Assembly: GCA_964524145.1 (NCBI GenBank)
Contig: CAZGCA010000010.1
Location: 13,807-77,806, forward strand
From: an uncultured bacterium
Lineage (GTDB): Bacteria; Hydrogenedentota; CAZGCA01
DNA: 64,000 nt
Direction: 5' to 3'
This document shows positions 17,441 through 62,400 of this stretch, piece after piece; the first letter of the stretch is position 1; every line of letters starts with the position of its first letter. The notes under the pieces were generated by a model. The model was not told the origin of the DNA. It ran no database searches and saw only the letters and a program-made list of their open reading frames with translations. The translations under genes were made by a program, and so were the position numbers.

Positions 17441-17444
17441 GCAC

Positions 17445-20395: not shown

Positions 20396-20477
20396 GCGAG
20401 GGCAGACACGAGTCCAATCGATAACGCCGTGGCGCTTGTTGCTTGGGTATGATGATCAGATGACCAGTTCGCAACCT

Positions 20478-21413
20478 TCACTTCTGAAGAATCAACGGCT
20501 TCGACTCTAGTGTCTGCCTGATCCCCTTGGCGACATCACTGAAGCCCTGATCTTGATTTTTCCACCCGCCAGCGACAGGTTTTCCGTCGGTAGGCAATGC
20601 CTTTAACTTGGAAAACGGTGCTTTATGCCAGTCACAATCTCTCAAGATGACAGGTATCACTATCGCACGTTTCAGTTGATGCTGCTGGAGTGCGAATTTC
20701 ATCTCTACCCCAGTACAGTACTCTGACGCCATAAAGCTCCGACTTACAAGAAGTAGAATCATTCGAGCTTTCTTCAGATTCTCGTCGATCTCATTGTCGA
20801 CCTCTCCGCCAGGAAGAATCTGACGATCATACCACTCGGATATGTAACCTTGGTTCTTCAAGAGACTCAAGTGGTCGTCCAACTTTTTCAGCATCCTCTT
20901 GTCTTCGTGGGAATACGAATAGAAAAGGAGTATTGGATCCTGGTTGGCCCTGCCGTTCTCTCCGGACACGATACTAGTCACGCCATCTGGTGCGTGTACG
21001 GCACCGGGCTGCGCTGGCTGGATGGGCACCCCGCTGTTCCCAAGACGCTCAATGAACAAGTTCCGCTCACCGTAAGTGCTGTAGTGGGAATAAATGGCGC
21101 TGAGCTGATCGTGGCTTATGGGCTCGCTGAGCCCCGCCAAGAATCTCACTGACTTCCCGATGATCTCATCGAAATCGTTGCCCATCAATTGAACAGAAAC
21201 GCAAAGGAGAACCTTGTGAAAACCGACAGGGTCCACATCCCATGTCGGCAATTCTTCAAGCAAACGGTCGATGAAATGGGATGGGTCCAAATGAGGAACG
21301 TTGAAATTCTTTTGGCTATGATACCAATCCAATGCTAGGAATCCCCACAGATCCCCGTCGAGATAGCTCTTGATGTACGACAGCCAATCCTTCATTTTAT
21401 TCTTATCCCACAC
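20478..21413 (-). CDS. TIR-domain protein (unknown roughly 150-aa N-terminal domain, C-terminal TIR_2-like domain with the catalytic Glu motif)
   Basis: The C-terminal ILLFYSYSHEDKRMLKKLDDHLSLLKNQGYISEWYDRQILPGGEVDNEIDENLKKARMILLLVSRSFMASEYCTGVEMKFALQQHQLKRAIVIPVILRDCDWH follows the bacterial TIR pattern (FISYSHED...W.DR.I.PG......I...A...ILLVS..F..S.YC..E). It is the last gene of the 4-gene operon. It is AT-rich relative to its surroundings. Confidence 0.7.
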   Translation of the reverse strand: MWDKNKMKDWLSYIKSYLDGDLWGFLALDWYHSQKNFNVPHLDPSHFIDRLLEELPTWDVDPVGFHKVLLCVSVQLMGNDFDEIIGKSVRFLAGLSEPISHDQLSAIYSHYSTYGERNLFIERLGNSGVPIQPAQPGAVHAPDGVTSIVSGENGRANQDPILLFYSYSHEDKRMLKKLDDHLSLLKNQGYISEWYDRQILPGGEVDNEIDENLKKARMILLLVSRSFMASEYCTGVEMKFALQQHQLKRAIVIPVILRDCDWHKAPFSKLKALPTDGKPVAGGWKNQDQGFSDVAKGIRQTLESKPLILQK

Positions 21414-24250: not shown

Positions 24251-24271
24251 GGCTTTCTCCCATGTAACCGG

Positions 24272-24973: not shown

Positions 24974-25365
24974 GATCAGCTACCTTTCTAAGGGCATGCC
25001 CACACTGGAGAGATGAAGAGGTCTGCGCACATCAGACTTTTCATTCCTCCCGTCTCCAAACAAAACAGCCGTTAAGTCTCACATTACCCGTAGGAACGGC
25101 GGCAATAGTGCCTGGAAACACCCGGGCCTATCAAACCGCCAACGCATCCACACCAATTGGGGGATACTAGTGTTGTAATTCGTCGTGAAAACCACCAGTT
25201 CTCGCCTGCTTTATCCCAGTCGTTGTGAGCGATACTGGGAACGACGGGTTACACTGTTCCTTACAGACTGACACTGTACCACCGCTCTGAATTCAATTCA
25301 ACCACTTCCCGGTTTCACCGAATACTTCGAAACACAAACGCATCACCCAAGGTCGAACGGTGTAC

Positions 25366-25830
25366 GTCTTCAGAACATTTGGGACAAATTAAAACCAGTA
25401 ATAGAGTAGAGATTCGGCCTTTGTATCCCAGTTTGGGAACCTCAGGTCGTGCTCGGGTCTGTGCCTTGAGCCTCCTCCGAGCCTCAAATATCGCTTCCCT
25501 TCTCTTGTAGTATGCATCATCAGGGGTAACGTGTCCCAAATTCAGTTCCCGAGGCTTTTGTAAGGGGCGCCTGCGCAAGATGCTGCAATGCGAGCCTTGC
25601 CTGGCTATCCATATGTTCTCTACTTAGTAGACGCGAAAACACCCTCTTTTCTTTCACCTTCGCTCCGAATTTGTGCCATCGCGTTCACTTGGCCAGATAT
25701 GTGCCGCTAAGGAATGGGTCTTCTCCCCCTCCGTTCCCATATAGTAGATTTCTTCCTTGACACCGCATCTCTTTGCAGGCATGCGACTTATAGAGTAGAT
25801 CTTCCGATTCAAATATCTACAGAAAGGCGG
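25366..25830 (-). mobile_element. IS transposase 3'-end remnant with terminal repeat (copy B); the rve integrase-core C-terminus is detectable
   Basis: ORF 25315..25578 translates to ...LGHVTPDDAYYKRREAIFEARRRLKAQTRA, homologous to ...[31 protein letters not shown] at 45905..46204. The end tcttcagaacatttgggac at 25366 is the reverse complement of the shared terminus. Confidence 0.6.
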
Positions 25831-26071
25831 TGCTGCAAAACCGGCTCCCCGGGTTCGTTTTCGCAGAGCAGTAATTCGAACAAACACGCCTCGCGGCTGA
25901 GTGTAGCCAAGATAAGACGTACTTGGCCTGCCGTCATGGGAGTTACGTTGAGAACCCACTGCGGAGGGAACATTGACCCTCGATTTACCGTCATGCTAGA
26001 ATCCGAACCGCACAGAGAAGCGTACCTAATTGGGTGATAGAAAAAGCACAGGAAGAGGAGCCAGGACACTC

Positions 26072-34800: not shown

Positions 34801-35129
34801 CGGCAAGAAACGTGAAGTTTCGCCGTTCAACCACCTCCTTTCAGCTTGCGACAAACATATACAACGTCTAATCGGGACTATAAGACAAGAATGTTGCATT
34901 GTCAAGGGTGACGTTGGTCGGCGCAATCATGATAATGCTGAGAAGGCCGACCGAGTGCGACGCAGTAGACGGGGGCAAATCCGGTGTCGCAGTAGAGCTG
35001 TGGTGAGAAAAGCGGGTTAAACACACCCGGGACACCCTTAATCGTTCAGCAATCCAATGAAGACATACCTGTAAAGCACTATGGATAGCAAGAAACACGA
35101 CAAACAGGCTTTCACCCACCAGGTGAGCC

Positions 35130-35440
35130 AAGCCATAACGACACCGCGAAGTCCCGCAGGGACGGTTGAGAATAGCCCAGGGGTTCACTGTGGTCGAAGC
35201 TATAACGACACGCCGAAGTCCCGCAGGGACGGTTGAGAATAGCCCAGGAGTTCACTCCTGGGAATCGGTATGATGCAACGGCCTTCAGTCCCGTAGGGAC
35301 GGCTGAACCCATTTCTTGAGGTCAAAGTCTTTCAGCCGTCCCTCCGGGACTCGATATGTTGAGGGAACGCCGGTGAACCGCAGGAATAAATTCCTGGGCT
35401 ATTGTCGTTCGTCCCTGCGGGACTCTGCAAAAACGTTCCG
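35130..35440. repeat. Cluster of direct and inverted repeats built on the palindromic core gtcccgcagggac
   Basis: The unit ataacgacacNgcgaagtcccgcagggacggttgagaatagcccagg occurs at 35130-35176 and 35196-35243. Degenerate direct copies (cagtcccgtagggacggctgaa) and inverted copies (agccgtccctccgggactcg; cctgggctattgtcgttcgtccctgcgggact) follow. It is intergenic, upstream of comM. Confidence 0.7.
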
Positions 35441-35563: not shown

Positions 35564-37126
35564 TTGTGGCATGGTGGAGGTGCCGAGGTGCTTGCCCGGG
35601 TCTATTCCGCGGCGGTAATGGGCGTCCACGCGTACCAGGTGGACGTCGAAGTGGACACGTCACGCGGTCTGCCTTCGTTCTCGACCGTTGGTCTGCCAGA
35701 CGCTTCCGTCAAAGAGAGCAAGGACCGGGTGCGTGCGGCGATACGGAACTCGGGCTACTTCTTTCCCGGCGGCGTGATAACCGTCAACCTTGCCCCGGCT
35801 GACGTCAAGAAGGAGGGCCCGGTCCACGACCTGCCTATCGCGGTGGCGGTCGTCATGGCCACGGGCCAGTGCGGCGCGCAATCCGTCGACGAGTACGCCA
35901 TGGTCGGCGAGCTGTCGCTCGACGGCACCGTCCGGCCGGTCAACGGGGTGCTCTGCATGGCGATGGGAGCCAAGGAGGCCGGCCGTCGAGGCGTCATCGT
36001 CGCCGAGGAGAACGCTGCGGAAGCAGGCGTCGTCGACGGTTTCGACGTGATACCCGTCAAACACCTGCGCGATGCCGTCGGGTTCATCGAGGGTTCGGTC
36101 GAGATCGAGCCCGTCCGCGTGGATATCGCCGAGGTGTTCCGGGAAAGCGCCAGGTACAGGGTCGATTTCTCCGACGTGAAAGGCCAGGCGCACGTCAAAC
36201 GCGCGCTCACCGTCGCCGCCGCCGGAGGCCATAACCTGTTGATGGTGGGCCCGCCCGGTTCCGGCAAGACGATGCTTGCGCGCCGGTTGGCCTCGATCCT
36301 GCCCGATATGACGCTCGACGAAGCGCTCGACACCACCAAGGTACACAGCATCACCGGCCTTACGAGCGGGAAGAACTGGCTGGTTGCTACGAGACCGTTC
36401 CGGTCGCCGCACCACACGACGTCCGGCGCGGCAATGGCGGGCGGCGGCGTGCCGCCGAAACCCGGCGAGGTCAGCCTGGCGCACAACGGCGTGCTCTTTC
36501 TCGACGAGTTCCCGGAGTTTAAGCGCGACGTGCTCGAGGTGTTGCGCCAGCCTGTTGAGGACGGTATCGTCTACATATCACGGGCGAGCTACGCGGTCGC
36601 GTACCCGTCGCGGTTCATGCTCGTTGCGGCGATGAACCCGTGCGTATGCGGCCATCTCGGCGACCCGTACAAGGCGTGTTCCTGCACGCCGGGCCAGATC
36701 CACCGGTACCGGTCACGGATAAGCGGGCCGCTGCTGGACAGGATAGACCTGCACGTCGAGGTGCCGGCACTGAGCTACAAGGAGATGTCCGCACGAGGCC
36801 CTTCCGGCGACGAGTCTTCGACCATCCGCGCGCGGGTGCAGGCGGCACGCGAACGGCAACGCGCACGCTACAGCGACGACGATATCGCCCAAAACGCGGA
36901 CCTGCAGCCGGGCCAGCTCAGAAAATACTGCGTGCTGTCGCCCGAGGCCGAAGAGATGATCAAGACCGCCGTCACACGGCTCGGGCTCTCGGCTCGGGCA
37001 TACGACAAGATATTCAAAGTGTCGCGAACGATAGCCGACCTCGCCGACGAACCCGACATAGGCATCGAGCACGTCTCCGAAGCCATCCAGTACCGCTCGC
37101 TCGACCGCGAATCTGCCCTGGTCTGA
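35564..37126 (+). CDS. comM: YifB/ComM-family Mg-chelatase-like AAA+ ATPase
   Basis: LARVYSAAVMGVHAYQVDVEVD...GLPDASVKESKDRV (N-terminal Lon-like domain), Walker A MVGPPGSGKTM, VLFLDEFPEF, and a C-terminal ComM domain. The antisense ORFs 35660..36484 and 35755..36486 are spurious. Confidence 0.85.
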   Translation: MWHGGGAEVLARVYSAAVMGVHAYQVDVEVDTSRGLPSFSTVGLPDASVKESKDRVRAAIRNSGYFFPGGVITVNLAPADVKKEGPVHDLPIAVAVVMATGQCGAQSVDEYAMVGELSLDGTVRPVNGVLCMAMGAKEAGRRGVIVAEENAAEAGVVDGFDVIPVKHLRDAVGFIEGSVEIEPVRVDIAEVFRESARYRVDFSDVKGQAHVKRALTVAAAGGHNLLMVGPPGSGKTMLARRLASILPDMTLDEALDTTKVHSITGLTSGKNWLVATRPFRSPHHTTSGAAMAGGGVPPKPGEVSLAHNGVLFLDEFPEFKRDVLEVLRQPVEDGIVYISRASYAVAYPSRFMLVAAMNPCVCGHLGDPYKACSCTPGQIHRYRSRISGPLLDRIDLHVEVPALSYKEMSARGPSGDESSTIRARVQAARERQRARYSDDDIAQNADLQPGQLRKYCVLSPEAEEMIKTAVTRLGLSARAYDKIFKVSRTIADLADEPDIGIEHVSEAIQYRSLDRESALV

Positions 37127-37128
37127 CG
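36968..37128. repeat. Direct repeat copy 1: the authentic 3' end of comM
   Basis: About 160 bp that reappears at roughly 93 % identity at 38466..38629 (gccg[tc]c[at]cac[ga]cggctcgg[gc]c[tc]ctcggctcg[ga]gcatacgacaagatattcaaagtgtcgcgaacgatagccgacctcgccgacgaacc...cgaatctgccctggt[ct]tgacg). Confidence 0.85.
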
Positions 37129-37339: not shown

Positions 37340-38047
37340 GTGACACACCCAAAGACGACCACCCAAACCGATAGGCCAGAATTGGATACGCCCACGTACC
37401 CGGCTGCTGAGGCCGCACGGCTCGTGGACATAAGCGCCACGCGGGTGCGCCGGTGGCTGAAAGGATATCACTACTGGTACAGGGCTGGGGTGCGCCATCA
37501 GCGCCCCGTAATTCGTCGTAGAGGAACGGCTGGCACGAACTACGCCTCTTTCTTAGACTTGGTTGACTTGTTGTTCGTCAAGCGATTCCTGGATGAAAAG
37601 ATTAGTCTTCAGAAAGTGCGAAGAGCCCTAGATGAGGCCGCGCGGATCCTCGGCACAGACCACTTCGCGCGCCAGCGCTTCTTCACAGACGGAAGCGACA
37701 TCTATCTGCAAGTGAAGGAAGAGGGAGATGCGATTCTGCAGCTTCTTGCTGGCGGACAGTGGGTAATAGCCGAGATCATAAAACAGCTTGCCCAGCAAAT
37801 CGACTTTGACGAGCCCACTGGCCTTGCCCGTCGCTGGTATCCGTTGGGCCGTGAAGGTCTAATTGTGCTGGACCCCCTCATCTCCTTCGGGCGTCCTTCG
37901 ATCATTGGGAGGGGGGTCGCAACTGCAAATGTCTACGACCTTTTCATTGCCGAGGCACTAAGGTCAGACCGAGTCTGCACTTGGATGGACCTCAGCCCCA
38001 AAGAACTAGACGCGGCAGTCCGGTTCGAACAACAGCTGGCAGCGTGA
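37340..38047 (+). CDS. DUF433-domain protein (putative antitoxin) with a long N-terminal extension
   Basis: The C-terminal SFGRPSIIGRGVATANVYDLFIAEALRSDRVCTWMDLSPKELDAAVRFEQQL fits DUF433 (RP.I.GTRI.V.DV...L..G.S.EEI...YP.LT.E.I.AAL). GTG start at 37340. At 235 aa it is far longer than typical roughly 80-aa DUF433 proteins. Confidence 0.5.
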   Translation: MTHPKTTTQTDRPELDTPTYPAAEAARLVDISATRVRRWLKGYHYWYRAGVRHQRPVIRRRGTAGTNYASFLDLVDLLFVKRFLDEKISLQKVRRALDEAARILGTDHFARQRFFTDGSDIYLQVKEEGDAILQLLAGGQWVIAEIIKQLAQQIDFDEPTGLARRWYPLGREGLIVLDPLISFGRPSIIGRGVATANVYDLFIAEALRSDRVCTWMDLSPKELDAAVRFEQQLAA

Positions 38048-38427
38048 AATTCTTCATTGACAACAATCTAAGCCAGCAGCTTGCCAACGGGATGAAGGCG
38101 TTTGGAGAGCCTGTCGAACATCTCAAGGAAAAATTTCCCGAGAACACAGACGACCTAGTTTGGCTCAAGTATGTAGGGCAGCAGAAGATATTCCTTGTGA
38201 CACGGGACGACCGCATGCGACATAACCAAATGGAGCTTCAGTCCCTTAAGAAACACAAGGTAGGCGCGTTCTTTCTCGGCGGGAAGAACCTGAACCGTTG
38301 CCGGTTGATTCAACAGTTGGTTAGAAACTGGCCCCGAATGAAGGACTACGCCAAAAAGGAAAGGCGACCGTTCGCCTTTCGTGTCCCGCCAACAGGGACG
38401 AAATTCATGCGGATTTCTCTGAGATGA
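38044..38427 (+). CDS. DUF5615-like (Mut7-C/PIN-like putative toxin) protein, partner of DUF433
   Basis: VKFFIDNNLSQQLANGMKAFGEPVEHL...DDLVWLKYVGQQKIFLVTRDDRM matches the DUF5615 pattern (MKFL.DENLP..L...L...GHDV.HV...DEEI...A...GRVLVTKDKDF). The GTG start overlaps the upstream stop (GTGA). Confidence 0.5.
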   Translation: MKFFIDNNLSQQLANGMKAFGEPVEHLKEKFPENTDDLVWLKYVGQQKIFLVTRDDRMRHNQMELQSLKKHKVGAFFLGGKNLNRCRLIQQLVRNWPRMKDYAKKERRPFAFRVPPTGTKFMRISLR

Positions 38428-38465: not shown

Positions 38466-38629
38466 GCCGCCCTCACCCGGCTCGGCCTCTCGGCTCGAGC
38501 ATACGACAAGATATTCAAAGTGTCGCGAACGATAGCCGACCTCGCCGACGAACCGGACATAGGGACCGAGCACGTCTCCGAAGCCATCCAGTATCGCTCT
38601 CTCGACCGCGAATCTGCCCTGGTTTGACG
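38466..38629. repeat. Direct repeat copy 2: the displaced duplicate of the comM 3' end
   Basis: See 36968..37128. The copy is out of any long ORF context. Confidence 0.85.
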
Positions 38630-41522: not shown

Positions 41523-41663
41523 TGGGCACGCGCGTGTTTGTCCCCTCTGACCGGCGGTTGCTCAAATCTGTGATCCACAGTCGTAGCCTTGCAGGCTTAG
41601 TTGGTTTGGCGATTCGACGACGAAAGCCGCGGACTGCGCTCGCTAATCTCCGGTCTGGAGTCA

Positions 41664-41820
41664 GCGGTCAGTTGCTAGTGGCCAGCTGCTGGTGGCAGAG
41701 GGCTGGCTTCGTCCGTGCTCGTAATCGTGCGCTCGGCTTGTTCTCTGTCCGCAGATTAACGCAGATAGACGCAGACTTGGCAGTAGTCAGTGGTCAGTTG
41801 GTGGTTGTCGGTAGTCAGGC
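41664..41820. repeat. About 160-bp direct repeat, copy 1, flanking the hicBA module
   Basis: gtcagttgctagtgg...cttcgtccgtgctcgtaatcgtgcgc...gtccgcagattaacgcagatagacgcagacttggcagtagtcagtggtcagttgg is repeated with small indels at 42504..42662. Confidence 0.8.
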
Positions 41821-42403: not shown

Positions 42404-42503
42404 TGGCCTTCCTTTCTGCCGACACATTGTCCATCCAAATAGGATGATAACGTTCCGCTGTGTGCGCTGTCAAACAGAAATGCGGTAGACGGGGCGGAAA
42501 GCA

Positions 42504-42662
42504 GCAGTCAGTTGCTCGTGGCGGAGGGTTGGGTTCGTCCGTGCTCGTGCTCGTAATCGTTATCGTGCGCCCGGGTCGGGTTCTGTCCACAGATTAACGC
42601 AGATAGACGCAGATTCGGTAGTAGTCAGTAGTCAGTTGCTAGTTGTCAGTTGCTGGTGGCGG
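42504..42662. repeat. About 160-bp direct repeat, copy 2, flanking the hicBA module
   Basis: See 41664..41820. Confidence 0.8.
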
Positions 42663-42715
42663 GGGGCGGGGTTCATTCGTGTTCGAGCCCTTGCCCCCCG
42701 TTTTCGCAGCGAACG

Positions 42716-51541: not shown

Positions 51542-52612
51542 CTAGTCCTGGAAATTCACCTCGCGCTCGGCGGGCGGCGCCAATGCCGGGAGGTTTTCAT
51601 TGACGCCCCGTTGGTACCAGAACGCACAGCTTGCGTAGTCATTGGCCTTGTCGTTGCCGTGGCCGTGCTCGAGCGTCACGCGGATTGACTTGCGGAACCG
51701 CAGGGGGTCGGCCAGGTAGAAGCGGTACATGGCGTTCGTGCCCCACCACCGATAGCCGGCACGGTTCTCGACGCAATGGAACCCGGTATACGGCCCCGTG
51801 TATTCCACGTCCGGGCCCGCGCCACCGCCGAAAATCTCCTCCGTTCCCGTGCCGTGAATCGAGGGCGGGAATTCTTCGCCGTCAATGAAGACCATGTCGT
51901 CGCCCTCGCCATACCAATCACGTTCGTGGTTGACGACCGTCAGGAAATATCCCGCGAACTGCCCGTCGCCTGCGACGTCGAGGATGACATAGTTGTCGTC
52001 GCCGCTGAGGTTCTTGATCTCGTCCTGTCCTTCGGGCAGCGCGACGGCCTCCGTACAGCGTTCCCGGTTCCACCGGGCGTGGAGCCTGCCGGCGTTGTCG
52101 GGGACGGCCGCGGGCGCGTCGTACAACTCGTAGTCAATGTGGTACCAACAGCCGGAGCCCAACTCATCGCTCTGGTTCTCGAGTTCGATGCGGGCGCCGC
52201 TGGTGAACGGCATAGGCAAGTAGCAGTTGAATCCCCACGACGAAACGACCTGACGGTCACAGCCTGGATTGATGGTGAAAGCCAGCGATTGTATTGGCCT
52301 CACCCGCCCATTGCAGACGCCAAAGAAATCCCCGAACGGCACTTCGATACTCGGCCTCTCCGACCCGTCCCAGAAGGCCCGCAGCACCACGTTCCGGAAC
52401 AGGTTCATGCGCAGGTTTTCCTGCGGCATGATGTAGGTCCAATAGAAATGCTTGATGCAACCGGCCCCCTTCTCCTCCATCAACACCTTCGTCTCGCCGG
52501 GACCGAACTCGATCCAATCCCGGTTCCCTCCCGTACGGTCCCAGCTCGATGCGCGCTTACTCCGATAGTCGTGTAACAGACACGCTTGCGACAGAATCCC
52601 GTTCGATACCAT
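51542..52612 (-). CDS. DUF2961 / GH172-like protein
   Basis: SWDRTGGNRDWIEFGPGETKVLMEEKGAGCIKHFYWT matches the DUF2961 N-terminal pattern (S.D.TGGN.D). The internal start MVSNGIL is at 52612. Confidence 0.55.
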   Translation of the reverse strand: MVSNGILSQACLLHDYRSKRASSWDRTGGNRDWIEFGPGETKVLMEEKGAGCIKHFYWTYIMPQENLRMNLFRNVVLRAFWDGSERPSIEVPFGDFFGVCNGRVRPIQSLAFTINPGCDRQVVSSWGFNCYLPMPFTSGARIELENQSDELGSGCWYHIDYELYDAPAAVPDNAGRLHARWNRERCTEAVALPEGQDEIKNLSGDDNYVILDVAGDGQFAGYFLTVVNHERDWYGEGDDMVFIDGEEFPPSIHGTGTEEIFGGGAGPDVEYTGPYTGFHCVENRAGYRWWGTNAMYRFYLADPLRFRKSIRVTLEHGHGNDKANDYASCAFWYQRGVNENLPALAPPAEREVNFQD

Positions 52613-52689
52613 GGGTGATTCTCCTTTCCTGCCAGGGTCTCCGGCCCAGAACTCACGACCCGCCAAGCATATCATGTACGGCTCCGAGA

Positions 52690-53312
52690 TTCACCTGTAC
52701 GTCTTCAGACTGTTTGCTGTTGAAGTGAACGGGACTCTCCAGGTCATCGTCAACGCGAGCAAACGAGTTCGAAGCTACGACGCCGAGACGGGCGACCTGA
52801 TCTGGGAGTGCGGGGGACAGACGATCAATGCCATTCCGTCGCCGGTCAGCGGTTTCGGAAACGTATTCTGCACCAGCGGTTATCGGGGCAGCGCATTGCA
52901 GGCCATCGAATTGGGCCGCACGGGCGACCTGACGCGCACCGATGCCATTAGCTGGGAGGTGAAAGAGGCCACCCCCTATACACCTTCCCCGCGGCTCTAC
53001 GGCGACAAGATCTATGTCTGTGCGGTCAACAAGGCCGTCATTTCGTGCTACCAGGCCGAGACGGGCAAGGCCAACTTCGTGAAACAGCGGCTCGAAGGGA
53101 TGAAGGAGATCTATGCATCACCCGTCGGGGCAGCCGACCGCGTGTATTTCGTCGGCCGGGACGGTAAGGCTACAGTCATCAAACGGTCAGAGAAAGTCGA
53201 AGTGCTGGCCACGAACACCCTCGACGATGAGATTGACGCCTCCCCCGCCGTCGCGGGCAATGAACTGTTTCTGAAAGGCAGAACCTACCTCTATTGCATC
53301 GCCGGTTCGTAA
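52690..53312 (+). pseudogene. 5'-truncated PQQ-like beta-propeller (BamB-like) gene: 3' blades only
   Basis: ORF 52611..53312 encodes propeller blades (VNASKRVRSYDAETGDLIWE...IYVCAVNKAVISCYQAETGK...VYFVGRDGKATVI...NELFLKG) without a signal peptide or N-terminal blades. Its 5' end runs into the convergent DUF2961 gene. Confidence 0.45.
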
Positions 53313-53335
53313 AGGAGATCGGCCTTTTACTTCTG
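53064..53335. repeat. Direct repeat copy 1: the 3' end of the PQQ-propeller gene
   Basis: About 270 bp repeated at roughly 90 % identity at 54846..55120. ORF 54862..55095 re-encodes MKQRLEGMKEIFASPVGAAGRVYFVGRDG...LFLKGKTYLYCIA. Confidence 0.85.
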
Positions 53336-53503
53336 GAATAGACGTGGTCGCCGGCTGGACCCACCCGTGGATCAACGGTGGCCCATGCTCATTGACCGCC
53401 ATGCGTCGTTTAAGCCAGCGTTGTCATCTGTTGATGCCTGTGCCGCTGCACGTAGAGACGAATTAAGTGTGATGTCCCCTGAATCACTGTTGCAGCTGGC
53501 CAA

Positions 53504-54682
53504 TCAAATGAGCCTGTTGCTAATCAGAAAGCTCCTACCTTTCTGGTGAATGCCGTACAAAGGCGGGCGCCCCCTGCCGTGGCTAGTATGGATATAGTCT
53601 TGCTCCTGAAGCGATCTTAAGTGGTAGCGAGTTACTAGCACAGAGAATCCCGTTGAGTGCGATATCTCGGAATCCTCCATCCGCTCTCGACCGGACTCTT
53701 CTGCCGCTGCAAGTAGCTTAAGAATCTTGACCTTTTCTTCCTCCAACCCACCTACCTGAGTCGTCTGCTCTGGAGGCGGTTCTTTGTAGGCAACTTGACC
53801 GATAATATCTCTTAACGATGCGAAGACTCCGTCGCCTGTTTCCCAAAACTCCCCATACGACTTACCGCCATCTACATAAAGCTGATGATCTTTTAGCCTT
53901 TTCAGGTTGGAGATCTGAGTCTCTATACCCTGCAGCACGGGTTGATCTGCAACGCCTTCCAGATTTGCGCCGAAATCGATGAGGTCTGATGTAAGCCGTT
54001 TTAATATGTACTTGGCGTCGTCAATACTAACAGGTTTGCTATCACGTTCGGTCGTCCAATCCACTTCAGCTCGTGTGACAAGAGCCTGCAGCTGTTGCTT
54101 CACGGAATCAACTGAACGAAGATCCTCATCGATACCTATAGTAACAAACGAGGGCTCGCCATGGAGTTGTCGGACTACCCTTGTTAGATGTCTAAGGAGC
54201 TTTTCCCTCAGACCAGAAACTGAATCATATTTATCAGGAAGACCCGCAGCCTGGCATTTCTCTTTAAAATCGGTAAGGAGCTTATATTGCTCGCGATCGA
54301 CACTGTCAAGCGCTACGGGAACTGATGAAAAATACAACAATACTGGTTTCCCTGCTTTCTCCATTTCCTGGATTTCTTCAACGGTACCCGACTCTGCGAC
54401 GCCGGTGTGAGTCCCTATTCTTGTCCAGAACGCGCCCACCAGCATGTCACAAGCGCCGACGAGTTGTTTGTTTATAATGGCCTGTGGCCTGTCTCCCAAT
54501 TCCGGAGTGGAATGAGTCTCCCACATAACCGGCATAAGCACTACGCCGTAGTCTTCTGAGTGAGTAGCATTCCACGCGCTGACAACTTCGGGTATCGCTT
54601 TCCGCTCAGCGATCACATCGCTGGGAGAAGCAATTAGGATTCTGTAAACTGTCGCTTCATATGCCATTTCTTGTTTTCCCAA
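53504..54682 (-). CDS. Protein with an N-terminal DUF4062-like (TIR/SLOG-like Rossmannoid) domain; cargo of the repeat-flanked insertion
   Basis: YRILIASPSDVIAERKAIPEVVSAWNATHSEDYGVVLMPVMWETHSTPELGDRPQAIINKQLVGACDMLVGAFWTRIGTHTGVAESGTVEEIQEMEKAGKPVLLYFSS matches the DUF4062 pattern (VFISSTF.DL.EER..V.E.I...G..PV.ME.F.A......I..CD..I.I.G.RYG). This segment is lower in GC than its flanks. Confidence 0.5.
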   Translation of the reverse strand: MGKQEMAYEATVYRILIASPSDVIAERKAIPEVVSAWNATHSEDYGVVLMPVMWETHSTPELGDRPQAIINKQLVGACDMLVGAFWTRIGTHTGVAESGTVEEIQEMEKAGKPVLLYFSSVPVALDSVDREQYKLLTDFKEKCQAAGLPDKYDSVSGLREKLLRHLTRVVRQLHGEPSFVTIGIDEDLRSVDSVKQQLQALVTRAEVDWTTERDSKPVSIDDAKYILKRLTSDLIDFGANLEGVADQPVLQGIETQISNLKRLKDHQLYVDGGKSYGEFWETGDGVFASLRDIIGQVAYKEPPPEQTTQVGGLEEEKVKILKLLAAAEESGRERMEDSEISHSTGFSVLVTRYHLRSLQEQDYIHTSHGRGRPPLYGIHQKGRSFLISNRLI

Positions 54683-54845
54683 TGTGATCGAACATGCGCC
54701 TCTTCACTGGGTCACCCCCCACAGAGGTCTCCCTTTACAGTTGTCGGTTCTCAACCCGTCATCATGGTATCCCGAAAGGCCCCGTCTGTCAAGGCGAAAG
54801 ACGTTAACCAGGCGGTTGGTGCTTCACTCTTATTCCGCCGTTTAC

Positions 54846-55120
54846 AGGCAAGGCCAACTTCGTGAAGCAACGGCTCGAAGGGATGAAGGAGATCTTCGCA
54901 TCACCCGTCGGGGCAGCCGGCCGCGTGTATTTCGTCGGCCGGGACGGTACGACTGCGGTCATCAAACGGTCGGAGACGTTCGAACTGCTGGCCACCAACA
55001 CCCTCGACGATGAAATCGACGCCTCCCCCGCCATCGTGGGCGATGAACTGTTTCTGAAAGGCAAGACCTACCTCTATTGCATCGCCGACGTCTAAAGGAG
55101 CAATGCCGTTTACTTTTCGA
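54846..55120. repeat. Direct repeat copy 2: the displaced duplicate of the PQQ-propeller gene 3' end
   Basis: See 53064..53335. Confidence 0.85.
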
Positions 55121-55938
55121 CCATAGGTGGTCCCTTTACCGTGATTCTCCCAGGTGCCTGTCTCCTGTTTTTCTCATCGCACCTTCAGATCAAGGGAAAT
55201 AGGTGTGGTGTCCCTGCGAAGGGAGATGCCTACCAGGTCAAAAAGTGTTCACCTGCCAGCGATTATTGGAGTGACAAGCAGAACAGGGTCAGGGAGTGGG
55301 AGAGCCATGTGCCCGAGTTGTGCCTGAGACGCGACAACTCGGATGGTCTTTCGCATGTGAAGGACAGCGCAGCACAGAACCCTCCGCAACCCTCTAGACG
55401 TTTCCTACCTCTCCGGCAGGCGCAGCCCTAAGGCTGACGCTTCGAACGGCACGGCGAAGCCGAACGCTACCACTTTGTTTAGAATATGGATTCTCACAAA
55501 TATAAATCAATCCCACGATATGAAAGAAGTTTTGTGCACCCTCTCAGCTCCCTTAGGTTTCCCCCTTCCCGGACTCTACCCCCTTCCCGTGAGGCCTGAA
55601 ACAGCGCGCCCAATCTTGATGGGGTCAAGCTTGTGAATCGTGCGCTGATCCTGCAGGCTCGTTCCTTGTCCCAGGCGAAACTCGCCCGCTCCCTTTAGTG
55701 ACCTAGACAATTTGAGATTGGCCCATCTCCGAGCATGCGGTCGTCGTGCGGTCGTCGTGCGTGAGTTTGTCCACGGCGCTTTTGCATGCTCCCCTCTCGT
55801 TGCCGGCCTGCCGTGAAAACCGTTAGACGGCCACGGGCCTCGGCAGCTTCCGCTTGCGCGCACCTGACCACACTGCCCAGCGTGGCCCGTACCCCTGAAT
55901 CTTGTATCAGGATAAGAAGACGGAGAGCACCGGTTAAT

Positions 55939-56223
55939 AGAGGTCAACTGCTGCAGCCGCTACGGACTCAAGGCCGTCAAAAGTCCAGGGTGACGCCGGG
56001 AATTCGCTTGACGTAACTGGTAAGGGAGGCGTATCATTTGGTCAGAGGGATGCAAAGAGGACAATGGTCTATGCTCGTACGCGCAGTCGAGGTGTGCGCA
56101 GCCCTTTAGACGGGTTATGAGGGGATGAGTTACGCGTGTTGCACGGCAAAATCGCCAAATAGAGGTGTTACACGGAAACCATGTAACACGTAGTTAGCTC
56201 AAGATGGAAAGGAGGTAAGGCGA
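55939..56223. repeat. Duplicated roughly 300-bp upstream regulatory region, copy 1, with an operator-like palindrome
   Basis: ctgcagccgctacggactcaaggccgtcaaaagtccagggtgacgccgggaattcgcttgacgtaactggtaagggaggcgta...ggtgttacacggaaaccatgtaacacgtagttag is homologous to 57684..58022. The palindrome gtgttaca-N9-tgtaacac sits at 56165-56190. Confidence 0.75.
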
Positions 56224-56553
56224 ATGACGAAGCAAGCGAAGATACTGATTGGAGTTGGGCTCTTGGTGCTGACGCTAGTTCTTGGTTTCTTCGCGTACCG
56301 CGCACAAGCGAAGTACAATCAGGCTATCGGGCGCACCGTAAGCGTAGCATCAGGTCAGACGGGGCCGATCACTGACAACACGCTGGTCCAGGTCCAGCTT
56401 TTTGGTCCACAGCGGAGGGAAGAAGACGCAGCAAAGAACAACCGCAATATGCTGGTAGTTGTCACTGTGCTTGCAGGAGTAGGAGCTGTTCTGTTCATCA
56501 TCCTAGGCATCGCCAGTAAGGGCGCAGTTCCACAGCCGGGAAAGGAGGGCTAA
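56224..56553 (+). CDS. Small membrane protein (two transmembrane segments), unknown function
   Basis: MTKQAKILIGVGLLVLTLVLGFFAY...LVVVTVLAGVGAVLFIILGIA. GGAAAGGAGG precedes the ATG. Confidence 0.4.
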   Translation: MTKQAKILIGVGLLVLTLVLGFFAYRAQAKYNQAIGRTVSVASGQTGPITDNTLVQVQLFGPQRREEDAAKNNRNMLVVVTVLAGVGAVLFIILGIASKGAVPQPGKEG

Positions 56554-56641
56554 CTCCCCGTAGAGCACGGCTGTCAAGGCCGCATGCCAAGCGCAGCCCT
56601 TGGCAGCGGCTTAGCCGGCTCGTTAGGGTAGGAAGCTTACA

Positions 56642-57613
56642 ATGCCAGTCTGCAAACGCTGCAACGAAAAAGTGGGCCTTCTTGCGTCCCTCAAAGCGCA
56701 CTGTGGATTATGTGAGGCGCGCCGTCAGAAAGCGAGCGAACTAGCGAACACCTATGAAGAGCGAGGGGCAACAGCATGCATCGATGAATTGGTGGATGTC
56801 GCCCGCAATTTAATTAGAGTCGCGCCCTGGCACTCGGCTTCCGGTGATGATATGGAACCAGTTGTTAACAGTCTTATCTGCGTCGGGCGTTTGGACGAAG
56901 CGCGTGAGCTTGTCCGGCGAGAGATGAAGATTGAGAGGTGCGAACGTGCGTTCCTAGCCTATGATGCCGTCGAGCGTCCGGAGGTCCTCACAGAAAAGCT
57001 CCTGCATGATTTTCCTCCAGACGAGGACTTTGACCCGTTCCGTTTGTTCCGTTTGGCCAGGGCTTTCGTAGTACTCGCATACTTCGAAATAGCATCCGAC
57101 AACGTGCTCGATCGTAAGGGACTCGTGCGTTGGTCTCAGGAGAGAGCTGCCGAGCTTGGGTATGCGCCGTACGCTGAAGACATTAGCAACCGGGTGAAGA
57201 ATCTATGGACGCAGTACCCCGCGTTATTGTGCGACGCTTGTCAACGGTTCGGCCATCTCCATAATGCAGAGGAGATGTTGGCCCGGGCATTGGAAGACGC
57301 CGGCCCTTTGCCAGATCACCAAGCGAACTGCTGCCGCTGCCTGACTCTCATTGGCATGGGGCGACTAAGCGAAGCACAGGATATTCTCGCAAGACACGAA
57401 CTTTCGTATCACACAGCGCGCGTAACTGCACTTCTGGCCAACGCATATCTGCAAAAGCAAGACACAGTCGGCGCTTTTTGGACCGCGCTGGGGATAGGTA
57501 ATGAGTTCTTCTCGAGCGGTATCTTGCGCTTTGCGCCGCACTTGGTGCGTGAGGCCAGCAAGGTGGCTTCGTTCTTTGCTTTGAACACGCTACTGCGTGA
57601 TTGGTGGGTATGA
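56642..57613 (+). CDS. Hypothetical protein with an N-terminal zinc-ribbon-like CxxC...CxxC
   Basis: MPVCKRCNEKVGLLASLKAHCGLCE. The rest is helical and uncharacterised. Confidence 0.4.
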   Translation: MPVCKRCNEKVGLLASLKAHCGLCEARRQKASELANTYEERGATACIDELVDVARNLIRVAPWHSASGDDMEPVVNSLICVGRLDEARELVRREMKIERCERAFLAYDAVERPEVLTEKLLHDFPPDEDFDPFRLFRLARAFVVLAYFEIASDNVLDRKGLVRWSQERAAELGYAPYAEDISNRVKNLWTQYPALLCDACQRFGHLHNAEEMLARALEDAGPLPDHQANCCRCLTLIGMGRLSEAQDILARHELSYHTARVTALLANAYLQKQDTVGAFWTALGIGNEFFSSGILRFAPHLVREASKVASFFALNTLLRDWWV

Positions 57614-57683
57614 AAACCAATCGGGGTACGCCCTGACAAGCGCATGCACGCACCTGTCCACGCTGCCAAGCATGGAAGCGAAC

Positions 57684-58022
57684 TGCTGTAGCCGCTGCGA
57701 ACGCAAGGCCGTCAAAAGTCCAGGGTGATGCCGGGAATCCGCTTGACGTAACTGGTACGAGAGGCGTACCATTCGGTCAGAGGGATGCAAGGAGCACAGT
57801 GGTGCATGCTCGTGCGCTCAATGGCGGTGGTCGAAGTGTGCGGAGCTCCGTTGACGCGTCATGAGGGGATCGGTTACGCGTGTTACGTAGAAACTATGTA
57901 AGACGCGTGGTAAATGGTGAGGGAGCTGTAATCCCCTCTCTTGAAATGGGTTTTGCAGGTCGCGTTTGTACGTGTTACCCGGAAACCATGTAACACGTAG
58001 TTAGGCCTAAAAATCCGTAAAG
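57684..58022. repeat. Duplicated upstream regulatory region, copy 2
   Basis: See 55939..56223. The palindrome cgtgttacccggaaaccatgtaacacg is at 57971-57997. A second partial palindrome ttacgcgtgttacgtagaaactatgtaagacgcgtggtaa lies upstream. Confidence 0.75.
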
Positions 58023-58484
58023 ATGGAGACCGGTGGCGACATGGAATTTTCAAAATTGCTCCGGGGTCTAAAACGCAAGATCTCCTGCCCTTTTTGCGGT
58101 GGCAAGAGGTCAGTCTACGTTGCCGGGAAGTGCCCGCGTTGTGGGTTCAACTTGCTGTGTCCGATTTGCGCTCGCCCCTTCGAGTTCGATTGGGGAATGA
58201 CACGCGTTGCCAACATGTTCGTTCGAGGGAAGACACTTCAGTGCCGTGACTGCGATCTCTACATCGGGATCGACTCGTACAGAGGTACGGCTGATGTCGA
58301 TTCCTTGTGCTTTTGCCCAAAATGTCGGGACTCACTCCTTCGGTGGCAGGATCTCCGCAAGTCGCGTGATCCGTTCTCACGGCAGCAGCCGTTTTCTGCG
58401 GTGCCAAAAACGGAACTGATTCACGGTACGCTCGTGTGCGAGAAATGTGATTTCACATGGTCCAAGGACATGCCGAAAGACTAA
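58023..58484 (+). CDS. Multi-zinc-ribbon small protein
   Basis: Repeated CPxCG/CxxC pairs: CPFCGGK...CPRCGF...CPICAR...CRDCD...CFCPKCRD...CEKCDF. Confidence 0.4.
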   Translation: METGGDMEFSKLLRGLKRKISCPFCGGKRSVYVAGKCPRCGFNLLCPICARPFEFDWGMTRVANMFVRGKTLQCRDCDLYIGIDSYRGTADVDSLCFCPKCRDSLLRWQDLRKSRDPFSRQQPFSAVPKTELIHGTLVCEKCDFTWSKDMPKD

Positions 58485-59427
58485 CGGAACAAGAGCAGGA
58501 ATCAGCGAACAAGCCAGTCGAGCTGACCGCCAGAATTGCCAATGCTCTGTAAACCAGGGGACGTATGTAAAAACGCAAAAAACTCATCGTACTCCCAAAA
58601 GTTTGTCTTTTAAACGACTACTGTTGCTGAATAGAGGGTGTGCCTAACAAATCGCTGAAGCTGACGGCGGTTCCCGCCGCAGCTTAGCTCAGTCGTTATG
58701 CCCGATCCGTAATAGCACAAGAAGCATCCTCCTTCTCCAATACCCTAAAAAACTGACTTGCCAAACCCCTTCCATGGCAGGTAGCTATCAACCCGATCGG
58801 CCAAACCCACGAAAGTGCCGTGAATGTCTCTGTGGGATTGAGAATGACAGAGGAATCTGGTGTGCGAAATTCAAGAAGATTCCGAATCCAAGGGAGATCA
58901 AGCGCTGTCGCCACTTTTGCCCCAAGGTGATACTTAATGATGTCCAAATCGATAGCTAGACGCCCACACACGTCTTCACACTGAAGTCGGACACGCGAGG
59001 CTGTCCGGCTTTGTCTTAACACCAAAAGGAGGTATTCCATGAGAGGAACTATTGACCAGATTTGGGAGAACGAGAGCCGTAACGGCCAGAAATACCTTGC
59101 GGTACAGATAGATGGAGAGCGATATAGCGCATGGGACACAGAGTACTTCGAACTAATTCAAGAGGCGCAATTAGGGGGACACCACAGTCATTGCACTGCG
59201 TTTTCGGTGTTCTGTCCCCCGAGTTCGAACCGCGTAGCTCCGGCCTGACTTCGCTTCATACAGTTTCCGCCGGCTTTCTTGGTCGGAGCCCCCACGTCCC
59301 CCTAACGACACGGCAGACTATATTCCTTTAGCGTACGCCTTGCCAAGAGGAACTGTTTGGTGTCCTTCGTTCTTGGAATAAACGTGGTTTCACCCTGCTT
59401 GGGCTCACCGGACCGGGAAACCGCGGT

Positions 59428-62400
59428 TCATTCATGCCTCAATGCAGGCAGGGTGTCTTTCTCCAACGCTGCAAGTATCGAAACGGCCATGCATGCACCG
59501 CTGCACAACAGAACCAGAAACAGCAGTGCGAGCTGAAACGGAATGGAGACGTCCGAGCCGGCGGACAGTATGGCGGGCGCCATGGACACCGCGGCGGCTA
59601 TCACGCCGACTCCGATGCCGGCCAGGAGCAGAAGACCGTGTTCGGTAAACAGCATTCGTAGAACCGTGCGGCGTTGGTAGCCGAGAGCGTGCAGCACGGC
59701 GATCTCGCGTCGCCGCTCGAGAACGTTGCGCAATACGACGATGCCCATGCCCGCGCCGCCGAGCGTCAGGCCCAGTCCGCCGAGCACCAGAAACATGGCG
59801 AGATACGTGCTTTGGACAACGTAGAATTCGCGCAGGCGTTCCACCGCAGGCACCACGTCCAGTCCGTGACGCTCGTACACCTGTTTGAGTGTGTTTGCAG
59901 CGTCTTCGGCTCCCTCGGTAGCCGTATCGATGAGGAATATCCGGAAACCGCTTTCGGAAGGGTACAACCGCGCGAACGCTTCATCGGAGACCAGTATCGT
60001 TCCCTGGAAGACCGACAGCCGCATCGGTAGCTGTCCCACCAGCTTCACGGTCACCTCGTTCCCGGACTCGTCGCGATAGAGAAGAGTATCTCCGTCGTCG
60101 ACGCCCGTCTTCTTGCGCAATCCCCACATGGCGGTGTCCGCGTCGCCGACGAGCGCAGGCACGAGATCGCCCTCAAGCTCGAGGTCGAGCAGGGTCCACA
60201 GGTCCTCATCTCGATCGTGATGCATGAAGGCGCGAAGTTCTGAGAACGTGTCCGGGTTAACCCCGAGCACACGCGGGGTCCGGGCGTAATTGAGGTTGAG
60301 GCAGCTTGCATCATCGCCGTCGCGGACGCGAACGGGTACAACCTTGACGTCTTCATCGCCGAGTGCCGCGGCCGGATCATCTTGCAAGGGGACGGTCGCC
60401 TCGGCGTAGAGTTCGAATCCCCCGGTTCCCGACCATCGCTCGCCCGAATGGGCGGCGAGATCCTCTCTCATGGAGGATACGGAGAACACCAGGAAACACC
60501 CGCATGCAAGCAGGCCGGCCACGCTCAGGCTGCGGCCGCGCCGGCGCGCGACGTTCTGTATCGAGACACTTGTCACCGTGGGCTGTTTCGCGGACCGTTT
60601 GGACGCCTGGGCGATCAGAACAAAACGCCAGAAACCCAGTCCCGAGAGCAAGAGAAGGGATCCTACGCCGAAGAAAGGCAGCACAATGTTGCCGGGTTTC
60701 GTGGCGATGACAGCAATGGCGACAATGATTGCCGACACAAATCCGCATACCGGCAAAGCGAGCGAACGCAGGTACGGGACGCGGCGTTGCCCGGCCACAC
60801 GTTCTTCGAGCGTGAAGTCGGCAGAGAGCAGTTCCCGAGCAGTGTGGCGGGTTTGACGCCATGAAGCAACCGCCATCGTGACGATCGCGCAACAGCATCC
60901 TGCCGCCCCGCCCATAAGCGCCGTGCCGGGTTCCGCGTGGTAGCTGATCGCGGCATTCGCTATCGCGCCCTGCCAGAACCGGCCGAGACCGAAGATGAGC
61001 GCGCGTGTGTAGGCGGTTCCGGCCAGAACGCCGACGGCGGAGGCCAAGACCGCGACCGCGCCCGCTTCGGCCAATACGATCAGGCGGATCTGGCCGGGTC
61101 GGAATCCCAGGGCAAGCAACGTACCGAACTCTGCGGCGCGTTGCTGCAGGGTGAAGACGAACAGCAGACCGGTCAGAATCAGCGCCGCAATGATGAGGAA
61201 GAAGCTCATCCCGAGAAAGAGTCCGCCAAAATCCATGGCTTGCGACACGGCCTCGAGGGCCTGCTCGCGGACCGGCTGAAACGCTATACCCATCTTCCCG
61301 GGATCAATCTCGCGGGTGAGCACGTGCCGGATATCAGCAACACGGTCAGCGGCCGCGTCAAACCGCACCGCGGTCAGGCGACCGAACCGGTTGCCCCACA
61401 TCGACTGGCCCGCGTCGAGGCCGACGAACAGTTTCGGTGTTTGTCCGAACTGTTGCCAGTACGACTCGTTGTCCGGGTCTCTGAGGAGCGCTTCCTCCAT
61501 AGGCATGCCGATTTCCCAATCGCGGCACCTGTTGACGTTGCTCAAGCCGGGTAACACGGGCATGAGGTCGCGTTCGACGCGCAGGCGATCCATCTCGACG
61601 ACGCCTCGCACGGTGAACGTCCGCGCGGCCTCAACGAACTTGTTGTTGGCAAGGAGTTGGTAGTACGTCACACGGAGCCGGTCTCCCTCGCGGGCATCCA
61701 AGTGTTCGGCCAGCCACCGGTTGATGACGGTTTCGTCGTCACCCAACTCCCCGTATGCGCCTCCGGCCAGCGCAAACGAATAGGGTGTGGTCTTATCGCT
61801 TTTGGAGACGGTGTTCACAAGGTAGGCCAACGCACCACGAGCCCCGGGTATCGCGAGCGCGGCCCGGGCAGCTTCATCGTCCAGGAACACGCGATCAGAT
61901 TCGAGTTGGACGACGCCGGAGGAGTGCTCGCGCAGCCGCAGGCCGAGATGCTCCAGTTCCCAGCTTTTTCGAACCGCTTCCCCGAGCGCTTCCGGGGTCA
62001 CGTCCCCACGCGACACGAGTGTGTTGACGCGTCCTTCCATAGAAACCTGTTCCTGGAGCCAGCGCAGGCTGACAAACGCATTGTAAGGCGCGATCTGGCC
62101 GGCGGTCAGAGCGTATCGCCCCAGCCCGGTATCCGGTACGATCTGTTTCACGGTGCAGAGCGCACGGACAACGGGTTCATTCTCGCGCGAAGAGAGCGGG
62201 GCATCCCGCACCATGAGGTCGGGCCGGATGATGCGCAACGACATCTCGTCGCCCGGAGCGAGGCCAAGCGCCGCGGCAAGTTTCTCGTTGACCGCCACCT
62301 CATAGTCGGCAAGCTCGAGCGCGATATCGGGGCTGAAGTCCCAGAACCGGGAGTTGACGCCGAGCACCTGCACCTGGTTGATCTGTGTTGTCGAGCCACC

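Follow-up and report, generated by a model that had tools for sequence, protein, structure and literature searches.

A predicted single-gene defense protein of the DUF4062/NIR family on a strain-variable island with a diverged propeller-gene tail

Introduction

A locus in a 64,000-nucleotide (nt) stretch of DNA from an uncultured Hydrogenedentota bacterium (GenBank assembly GCA_964524145.1, contig CAZGCA010000010.1; the whole stretch is hereafter called the window) raises two questions: what is encoded by a gene of low guanine and cytosine (GC) content that lies between two diverged copies of the 3' end of a neighboring gene, and how did it come to lie there? The gene encodes a 387-amino-acid (aa) protein whose N-terminal domain resembles DUF4062, and the gene with the repeated end encodes the remnant of a PQQ/BamB-like beta-propeller protein. 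The locus as a whole is probably explained by a one-protein DUF4062/NIR anti-phage system of the abortive-infection type, carried on an accreted island with an imported propeller tail.

Three preprints from 2026 describe DUF4062, renamed NIR, as a TIR-like NAD+ hydrolase in abortive-infection defense (10.64898/2026.05.01.722283, 10.64898/2026.06.25.731849, 10.64898/2026.09.04.749371), and NADase and defense activity has been demonstrated for KpSwz, Eva01, PsAvs2, Vulcan, Vesta and TEP1. The Swarozyc protein KpSwz consists of a DUF4062 domain with the catalytic residue E97, a helical stalk and a sensor of the helix-turn-helix (HTH)/winged kind, which binds the phage portal (Osinski et al., bioRxiv 10.64898/2026.05.01.722283). 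In Evangelion, the DUF4062 domain is combined with a variable AUX region, and Eva01 requires F11, E87 and W162 (bioRxiv 10.64898/2026.06.25.731849). PsAvs2, Vulcan and Vesta also employ the NIR/DUF4062 domain (bioRxiv 10.64898/2026.09.04.749371). By analogy, the guess of the initial annotation of the window that the gene encodes a single-gene defense or NAD-processing effector agrees with these three studies.

Results

The N-terminal DUF4062/NIR domain and its glutamate pair

The N-terminal part of the protein is predicted to adopt a TIR-like, flavodoxin-type fold with five parallel strands in a beta-alpha repeat. The Pfam family PF13271 (DUF4062) is matched by 33 of 40 aligned relatives, which are 42-70% identical to the 387-aa protein (best E = 2e-6), and residues 7-176 match profile positions 4-178 of the PADLOC candidate PDC-S60 (E = 1.7e-27). 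In addition, plasmid homologues recovered by tblastn (47-50% identical, E = 5e-85) are named “DUF4062 domain-containing protein” by NCBI PGAP. These three results bear out the DUF4062/TIR-like N-terminus that had been proposed from the sequence. Membership in the PDC-S60 system itself was rejected, as the match does not extend over the full 906-position profile: the domain is common to both, whereas the system is not.

At least 1695 homologues of the protein are found, many with precomputed PF13271 matches. Among the best 120, approximately one quarter are full-length (379-389 aa), and most of the others, with 290-310 aa, span the initial 73% of the 387-aa protein. Sequence comparison places the protein in a large uncharacterized lineage of DUF4062/NIR proteins.

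In the family alignment of 40-48 relatives, E97 is invariant and E98 is at least 90% conserved. D17, W32-N33, Q62, D74 and T82-R83 are also invariant, and a family-specific motif, W49-E50-T51-H52, is located in a longer BB loop. The alignment with Eva01 of pMW2 (NC_005011, 3863..4837) by hhalign covers the N-domain only, at 27% identity and a probability of 73%, and ends at residue 166 here and at residue 153 in Eva01. In this alignment, the catalytic E87 of Eva01 corresponds to E98, D18 to D17 and Q50 to Q62.

A shared helical module and a winged helix in the C-terminal part

The initial annotation had called for characterization of the C-terminal part. The full-length predicted model, with a predicted local distance difference test (pLDDT) score of 75.7, contains long helices at residues 178-291 and a winged helix at residues 310-387, so that the C-terminal 220 residues appear to consist of a conserved helical module and a winged helix. 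An exhaustive HMMER search with residues 175-387 returns 175 cluster representatives. The helical module follows a TIR_2 domain in P0246 (E = 4e-14), a CAP12/Pycsar-type TIR domain in P0267, P0284 and P0295 (E from 1e-23 to 1e-26) and an NDT-like domain in P0244. Effector swapping on a common module is typical of defense proteins. Since one helical module stands behind different effectors, it can be argued that this module is the oligomerization or sensing part. The winged-helix region has weak matches to CasR, Csa3 and TubR and is, as judged from the homologues, an add-on in one subclade.

Neighborhoods of relatives

Relatives of the DUF4062 gene are usually solitary and lie in variable or defense-type surroundings. 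These include HNH/HIT and DruA genes with IS21 and an integrase close by; a transposase with a group II intron; HATPase_c_3, AAA_13, HD and NUDIX genes together with an integrase in Paenibacillus; ParB, PIF1-WYL and methyltransferase genes; an Mrr_cat gene; and, in four different contexts, a gene for an 807-aa HSDR_N protein directly upstream, with ResIII and NERD genes close by. In the latter case, the relative P0010 (64% identical; contigs L073-L076) always has the HSDR_N gene 33 nt upstream on the same strand, and the outer flanks differ among the four readable contigs; the HSDR_N gene and P0010 may be a two-gene variant of the system. A Salmonella homologue of the N-domain (L062; NZ_LN868944.1, 528618-529190; 49% identical) is located right after terminase genes at the end of a prophage-like region and is cut at 190 aa by an IS3 insertion.

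Predicted function and comparison with known systems

By analogy with characterized family members, the product of 53504..54667 is a likely NADase-type single-gene defense candidate of the DUF4062/NIR kind. The effector would be the N-terminal TIR-like domain (residues 1-170), with the catalytic-site glutamates E97/E98; it would be kept inactive in an oligomer via the helical module (residues 178-291), and the infected cell would finally be stopped by abortive infection. Observed here are the fold, conserved residues, a modular architecture, defense-type neighborhoods of relatives and horizontal acquisition. NADase activity, a trigger and an abortive outcome would be expected from the experimentally studied DUF4062 proteins.

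As far as the described architectures can be compared, the protein resembles Swarozyc KpSwz, which is likewise a single protein with an N-terminal DUF4062 domain (~165 residues in KpSwz), helices and a C-terminal winged helix; Swarozyc is also found in defense islands and spreads horizontally. It differs in the ~110-residue four-helix module (DGGKSY-FW) between effector and winged helix, and most of its family has no winged helix. With Evangelion, it shares a single-gene organization, a DUF4062 core with a variable auxiliary region, and the aligned catalytic glutamate. The plasmid matches obtained by tblastn (Enterococcus, Rhodococcus, Synechococcus, Salmonella and Priestia) overlap the genera of Evangelion plasmids in that paper, except for Staphylococcus, its largest group. 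Unlike Eva01, the protein lacks F11 and W51-E52, and its gene is chromosomal rather than plasmid-borne. No similarity to the Eva01 AUX region is detected by hhalign past residue 166; the auxiliary regions are unrelated, which indicates that the 387-aa protein is not in the Eva01 lineage. As in Vulcan, Vesta and NIR-Avs2, which deplete NAD+ upon phage sensing, a NIR/DUF4062 effector has its (here predicted) catalytic glutamate near residue 100, whereas the HEAT repeats, alkaline-phosphatase partner and STAND-TPR sensors of those systems are absent here.

Some annotations point to another role. Several relatives are named “ArsR family regulator” by JGI, HTH_24, HTH_5 or MarR_2 matches occur in approximately 20 of 40 relatives, and palindromic sites are located upstream of two island operons; the protein could then be a transcription factor. 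DNA, for instance at the GTGTTAC...GTAACAC palindromes of the island, would be bound by its ArsR/MarR-like winged helix, and its TIR-like domain would do no more than bind a nucleotide ligand, with no part in defense. This is very unlikely, as most of the family (~290-310 aa) retains the helical module and the invariant glutamates without a winged helix, the module is common to catalytic TIR effectors, the winged-helix part of KpSwz binds the phage portal and not DNA, and the relatives occur in defense and mobile-element neighborhoods. A defense or conflict effector with other chemistry, such as a nucleotide or nucleoside hydrolase, a deoxyribosyltransferase (CMP-hydrolase-like) or a producer of a signaling isomer of ADP-ribose (ADPR), is also unlikely, if somewhat less so: every positively tested DUF4062 protein turned NAD(P)+ into ADPR(P) and nicotinamide, and TEP1 produced no other isomers.

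The assignment as a NADase-type effector also has observations to contend with. The Pfam search that the initial annotation had proposed succeeds for most relatives but not for the protein itself, which scores 17.4 bits against PF13271 (E = 0.005), below the cut-off of 24.7 bits. This sub-threshold score is explained by the Pfam model, which spans only approximately half of the true ~164-residue domain (Swarozyc supplement, bioRxiv 10.64898/2026.05.01.722283). In addition, Eva01 residues F11, Y88 and W51-E52 are not conserved (L11, I99 and A63-I64 here), sequence and profile searches of the PDB with the 387-aa protein match no DUF4062 structure, and the immediate neighbors of the gene in the window include no recognized defense genes.

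The duplicated tail of the propeller gene

The 3' end of the propeller gene is present as a direct repeat of two 289-nt copies, A and B (Table 1), which a repeat search finds to be 87% identical at an offset of 1783. In a MAFFT alignment, the left edge of the repeat is sharp at 53061/54844, and the similarity fades ~37 nt past the stop codons at 53312 and 55095. The tail duplication described in the initial annotation (~270 bp, 75 aa, ~90% identity) is real, and its extent is now set at the last 82 codons plus 37 nt. The same annotation regarded the propeller gene as 5'-truncated, which is also the case: its ORF (open reading frame) matches Pfam PQQ_2 at positions 116-229 of 233 only, which is the C-terminal half of the PQQ_2/BamB profile, and its relatives are longer, with ~455 aa in contig L060 (frameshifted, 258+197 aa) and an ORF of up to 465 aa in L009. 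The truncated gene abuts a divergently oriented GH172 gene. The 212-aa truncated form is also present in an island-free strain (contig L061; P0122, 94% identical); the truncation is therefore common to both haplotypes and older than the island.

The best protein matches of the ORF in copy B are P0122 and P0123 (~90%), and its “CIADV” ending is shared with P0123. The best propeller relatives found are in metagenome-assembled genomes of Planctomycetota; a DUF1559/N-methyl protein is also encoded in the window. Independent assemblies from JGI, ENA and Logan show this arrangement as well (99.7-100% identity), which indicates that it is not an assembly artifact. The pattern at the flank of copy B is contained in the JGI contigs L001, L002 and L005. 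A full-length PQQ gene that extends past the right end of the window (minus strand, stop near 63226; complete in L001) was considered as the source of the copy and rejected, with only 23-26% identity. No propeller fragments were found adjoining close DUF4062 homologues; across lineages, the mobile unit of the gene therefore does not include the tail as a conserved component.

Between the two copies, the cargo and its coding sequence (49.3% GC) are poorer in GC than the window (57.6%) and the flanking genes (59-62%). The initial annotation was right that the low-GC cargo holds one credible minus-strand ORF, ending at 53504, but not about its start: the start codon is the ATG at 54667 rather than the TTG at 54682, since P0001 is a 100% identical 387-aa product and the homologues begin at the same methionine. 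Promoter-like consensus matches such as the one upstream of the gene are no commoner than in shuffled sequence. A terminator or attC-like structure 3' of the gene is unsupported, as the 171 nt from inside the end of the coding sequence to copy A fold no better than shuffled sequences (z = -0.85). The two ends of the cargo have no inverted repeats. An integron gene cassette was rejected on these grounds and because no integrase was found.

A strain-variable 6-kb island and its empty site

Contig L061 (JGI 3300007871), which was found via P0122, a close relative of the propeller remnant, aligns to the window at 52300-53357 and then, 10 nt later, at 59409-59576, the 3' end of an FtsX gene. The intervening ~6 kb (53358-59408), with the DUF4062 gene, copy B and six genes of no known family, is wholly absent from it. 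The island comprises 6.04 kb (53349-59388) in the spacer between the propeller remnant and the FtsX gene, with the DUF4062 gene as its left-most module. What varies between strains is this island, and not the 1.5-1.8-kb cassette alone. An island-bearing contig, L069, comes from the same sample, which shows that the island is polymorphic within one community. The insertion “into” the propeller tail suggested by the initial annotation must be modified: the cargo does lie between the tail copies, but the island is located past the stop codon of a tail that is intact, within the PQQ-FtsX spacer. The existence of a sister strain without the segment also shows that the repeat is not a tandem duplication present in all relatives, which that annotation would have taken as a refutation.

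The island is bounded by a 15-nt direct repeat that has only these two matches in the window at two or fewer mismatches (0.10 expected by chance). A single copy of the motif is present in the contigs with the empty site (L061 and L060), and contigs that bear the island are the only ones with two. The spacer of L061 has the order left part, core, right part. All contigs with the 323-aa gene of the island show the same arrangement at 100% identity, and no other context was found for it. Among genomes in GTDB, the propeller gene is conserved (up to 81% nucleotide identity, L009) but its neighbors are not, and no empty site is readable there.

Divergence of the tails and a parallel at comM

Of the 246 coding positions, 27 differ between copies A and B, with a synonymous rate (dS) of 0.22, a non-synonymous rate (dN) of 0.087 and a dN/dS ratio of 0.39 (binomial p = 0.02 against neutrality). 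The mainly synonymous differences indicate that the tails diverged mostly in functional genes of different lineages rather than where they now lie. Up to 53166, only 2 differences in 867 positions separate L061 from the window (99.8% identity, 52300-53166), and the two are identical at 53061-53166 within copy A, which suggests that copy A is native to this lineage and that copy B was imported. In the following patch (53167-53288), 27 of 122 positions differ (78% identity), often in agreement with copy B, after which the sequence is again of the A type; the tails thus appear to recombine with each other or with other alleles. The FtsX end of L061 is 88.7% identical to the window, and this divergence together with that of the patch places the island polymorphism inside a larger recombination tract.

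The window contains a second tail-bracketed cargo, as the initial annotation had noticed. The tail of the Mg-chelatase-like gene comM/yifB (35564..37126) at 36966-37128 recurs at 38467-38629 (163 nt, 94% identity), and the copies differ by 8 synonymous and 2 non-synonymous changes (dS ~0.2, dN/dS ~0.08). The 1.3-kb cargo between them is a toxin-antitoxin pair, in which 37340..38047 resembles an antitoxin gene (HTH_66/DUF433) and 37981..38427 a toxin gene (PIN_10/DUF5615). No third copy of the comM tail was found. The repeat pair 20243-20369 / 25725-25851 was considered as a third case of this layout and rejected, as it is an intergenic promoter-like element and not a gene tail.

Origin of the island

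Tandem accretion of two integrase-less elements at one attachment site is the favored origin of the island. Copy B would be the attachment arm of a 1.78-kb integrase-less cassette that consists of the DUF4062 gene and a tail from another lineage. A circular element with the attachment region “tail B - flank - core” would, on recombining at the chromosomal core, yield precisely the order that is seen: tail A - core - cargo - tail B - core. Behind the next core would lie a second element (55131-59369), with the 15-18-nt core duplicated at both island ends; a short flank-like arm of weak similarity (59340-59369) is found next to the right core. The elements may have been mobilized in trans or by homologous recombination, or may have decayed, and the array would also have been swapped between strains by homologous recombination in the flanks.

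Accreted integrative elements and cis-mobilizable elements (CIMEs) at one attachment site are arranged head-to-tail with att-like repeats between them, may be without integrase genes and form arrays that vary between strains. Unlike CIME arrays, the present locus has short, partly degenerate cores, and a cognate integrase was not identified in the 64-kb window. The closest classical analogue of the tail-bracketed layout is, as we take it, e14 or phage 21 at icd of E. coli, where a duplicated icd 3' end (~165 nt) brackets the element, the copies differ mostly synonymously, and an orphan tail remains at one end. In both loci of the window, a duplicated 3' end of the target gene similarly flanks the element with synonymous-biased divergence (289 nt, 87%; comM, 163 nt, 94%). 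However, e14 and phage 21 have their own integrase and comprise 15-40 kb, whereas the cassettes here comprise 1.5-1.8 kb without a recombinase, and the native tail seems to be still attached to its gene.

A strong alternative, possible though clearly the less probable, is that a pre-assembled island with both tails was imported whole from a diverged relative via flanking homologous recombination; the core would then be chance or spacer homology, and no mobile 1.78-kb cassette would exist. The fall in the identity of L061 at 53167 and its divergent FtsX end have the signature of a recombination tract, and the 15-nt match is not significant window-wide by BLAST statistics alone (E = 1.7). Import explains neither the second tail inside the island nor the recurrence of the tail-cargo-tail layout at comM, where the divergence is also mainly synonymous; moreover, the core lies exactly at both junctions, and the accretion and import models are not exclusive. 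In-situ tandem duplication of the gene tail, with later divergence and insertion of the cargo between the copies, would account for direct repeats in the same orientation 1.8 kb apart. It is nevertheless extremely improbable, as the copies differ by 13%, compared with 0.2% for the sister strain in the adjacent DNA, and their differences are biased to synonymous sites although both copies are in a pseudogene context.

A further proposal, which we regard as doubtful, is that the DUF4062 cassette (1.78 kb) and the PIN/DUF433 cassette at comM (1.5 kb) are integrase-free “homology-homing” mini-elements. Each would consist of one conflict gene or gene pair and 160-290 nt that duplicate a conserved host gene's 3' tail, loop out as a circle by tail-tail recombination and re-integrate in a related strain by a single crossover at the same tail. 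The spread of defense genes would then require no dedicated recombinase. Such a model fits the mosaic tail of L061 and the fact that the tails diverge mainly at synonymous sites.

Several results tell against accretion. The middle core (55113-55130) is degenerate. No integrase, recombinase or transposase was found in the cargos, the island or the ~30 large window ORFs scanned. The empty site sought by the initial annotation was recovered for the 6-kb island and not for the 1.78-kb unit alone, and for the island it consists of one 1235-bp metagenomic contig with a right flank that is 11% divergent and a 122-nt divergent tail patch. L061 may thus be a recombinant or a deletion derivative instead of the ancestral state.

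Table 1. Features of the locus in window coordinates
Feature	Position	Strand	Remarks
PQQ/BamB-like beta-propeller remnant, 5'-truncated, 212-aa ORF	52674..53312	+	Propeller homology from ~52716
Repeat copy A: last 82 propeller codons, stop codon, 37 nt of downstream flank	53061..53349	+	
Left direct repeat, 15 nt, att-like core TGGAATAGACGTGGT	53334..53348	+	Island left edge
Unique low-GC cargo between the tails, 1494 nt, GC 50.5%	53350..54843		
DUF4062/NIR-family gene, 387 aa (P0001)	53504..54667	-	Sole credible gene of the cargo
C-terminal winged helix-turn-helix (predicted), residues 310-387	53507..53740	-	Model pLDDT 78-87; in part of the family only
Conserved four-helix module, residues 178-291, motif H..Y.DGGKSY..FW..G	53795..54136	-	
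N-terminal TIR-like NIR/DUF4062 domain, residues 1-170, five-stranded beta/alpha fold	54158..54667	-	
Codons E97-E98, motif ESGTVEE	54374..54379	-	Position predicted for the catalytic glutamate, where helix alphaC starts
Promoter-like TTGACA-17-TACCAT	54764..54792	-	~100 nt upstream of the start codon, inside the cargo; consensus match only
Repeat copy B: orphan propeller tail, 77-aa ORF 54862..55095	54844..55132	+	Degenerate core TTTTCGACCATAGGTGGT at 55113-55130
Rest of the island	55133..59373		Genes of no known family (96, 109, 323, 153, 147, 69 aa) and two paralogous promoter-plus-leader segments
Right direct repeat TGGAATAAACGTGGT	59374..59388	+	Point at which homology to the island-free strain returns, continuing into the FtsX 3' end

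Other features of the island and the window

The two paralogous segments in the rest of the island (55937-56197 and 57672-58004) share ~260 nt at 82-84% identity. Each contains a TTGACG-17-TATCAT promoter-like site and a long leader, with a near-perfect palindrome, GTGTTACNCGGAAACCATGTAACAC, just before the ribosome-binding site. The genes 3' of them are unrelated and of no known family (109 aa and a 323-aa TPR-like protein; a 153-aa zinc-ribbon protein), and the segments may be a shared operator or a cis-regulatory RNA; Rfam has no matches on the island. At the right end of the island, 54 nt (59298-59351, ACGACACGGCAGACTATATTCCTTTAGCG...) are 83% identical to positions 10001-10054 of L009, 8.2 kb downstream of the orthologous propeller gene. 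The DNA around this match does not align, and its minus strand reads as a TTGGCA-18-TATAGT promoter.

Downstream of the comM cassette are DUF1883, sigma/LuxR-like and IrrE/M78 peptidase genes, which suggests another island. Just upstream of comM, two Acido-Lenti-1 RNA matches are present (51.9 and 37.5 bits) at 35217-35262 (minus) and 35379-35424 (plus), one of them inside a 67-nt tandem repeat (35123-35256). Between the M78-peptidase region and a 478-aa ORF, CAGT/GGTG-rich direct repeats of 63-99 nt and 67-83% identity occur (41659-41812 / 42485-42685).

The intergenic promoter-like repeat at 20243-25851 is 127 nt long and 80% identical, and it flanks a 5.4-kb block of low GC content (50.5%). 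Its products are a TIR_2 protein (20478..21413, minus), an unknown protein of 588 aa, a HATPase_c protein (362 aa) and a protein resembling orotidine monophosphate (OMP) decarboxylase (233 aa), and the block may be another defense cluster. The sequence ACTGGACGATGTTAGAACT is present in three exact copies (13420-13438, 17443-17461 and 20371-20389; 0.01 expected by chance), each past the 3' end of a minus-strand gene at a distance of 55-300 nt, and may be a repetitive extragenic palindromic (REP)-like or terminator-associated element. Four tandem paralogous genes on the minus strand (3753-9818; 445-622 aa) share blocks of 65-85% identity, and the two that were scanned have no Pfam match. In one of these paralogues, a 141-nt unit is present as three tandem copies (6256-6678), of which two are identical and one is 66% identical.

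Discussion

With this protein, the DUF4062/NIR defense family gains a large uncharacterized lineage with more than 1,600 relatives. The helical module that it has in common with TIR and CAP12-TIR effectors is a concrete case of effector swapping and may be used to find the trigger of the module. The locus is a natural presence/absence polymorphism within one sample, and the empty site is what is new here. Together with comM, it also provides two cases in which diverged host-gene tails flank a tiny cassette without a recombinase. These tail-cargo-tail cassettes, along with the helical module that is shared among effectors, are the most interesting remainder of this analysis. If the cassettes are only decay products, the locus is an ordinary defense islet; if they are mobile, they would represent an under-appreciated route for moving defense genes.

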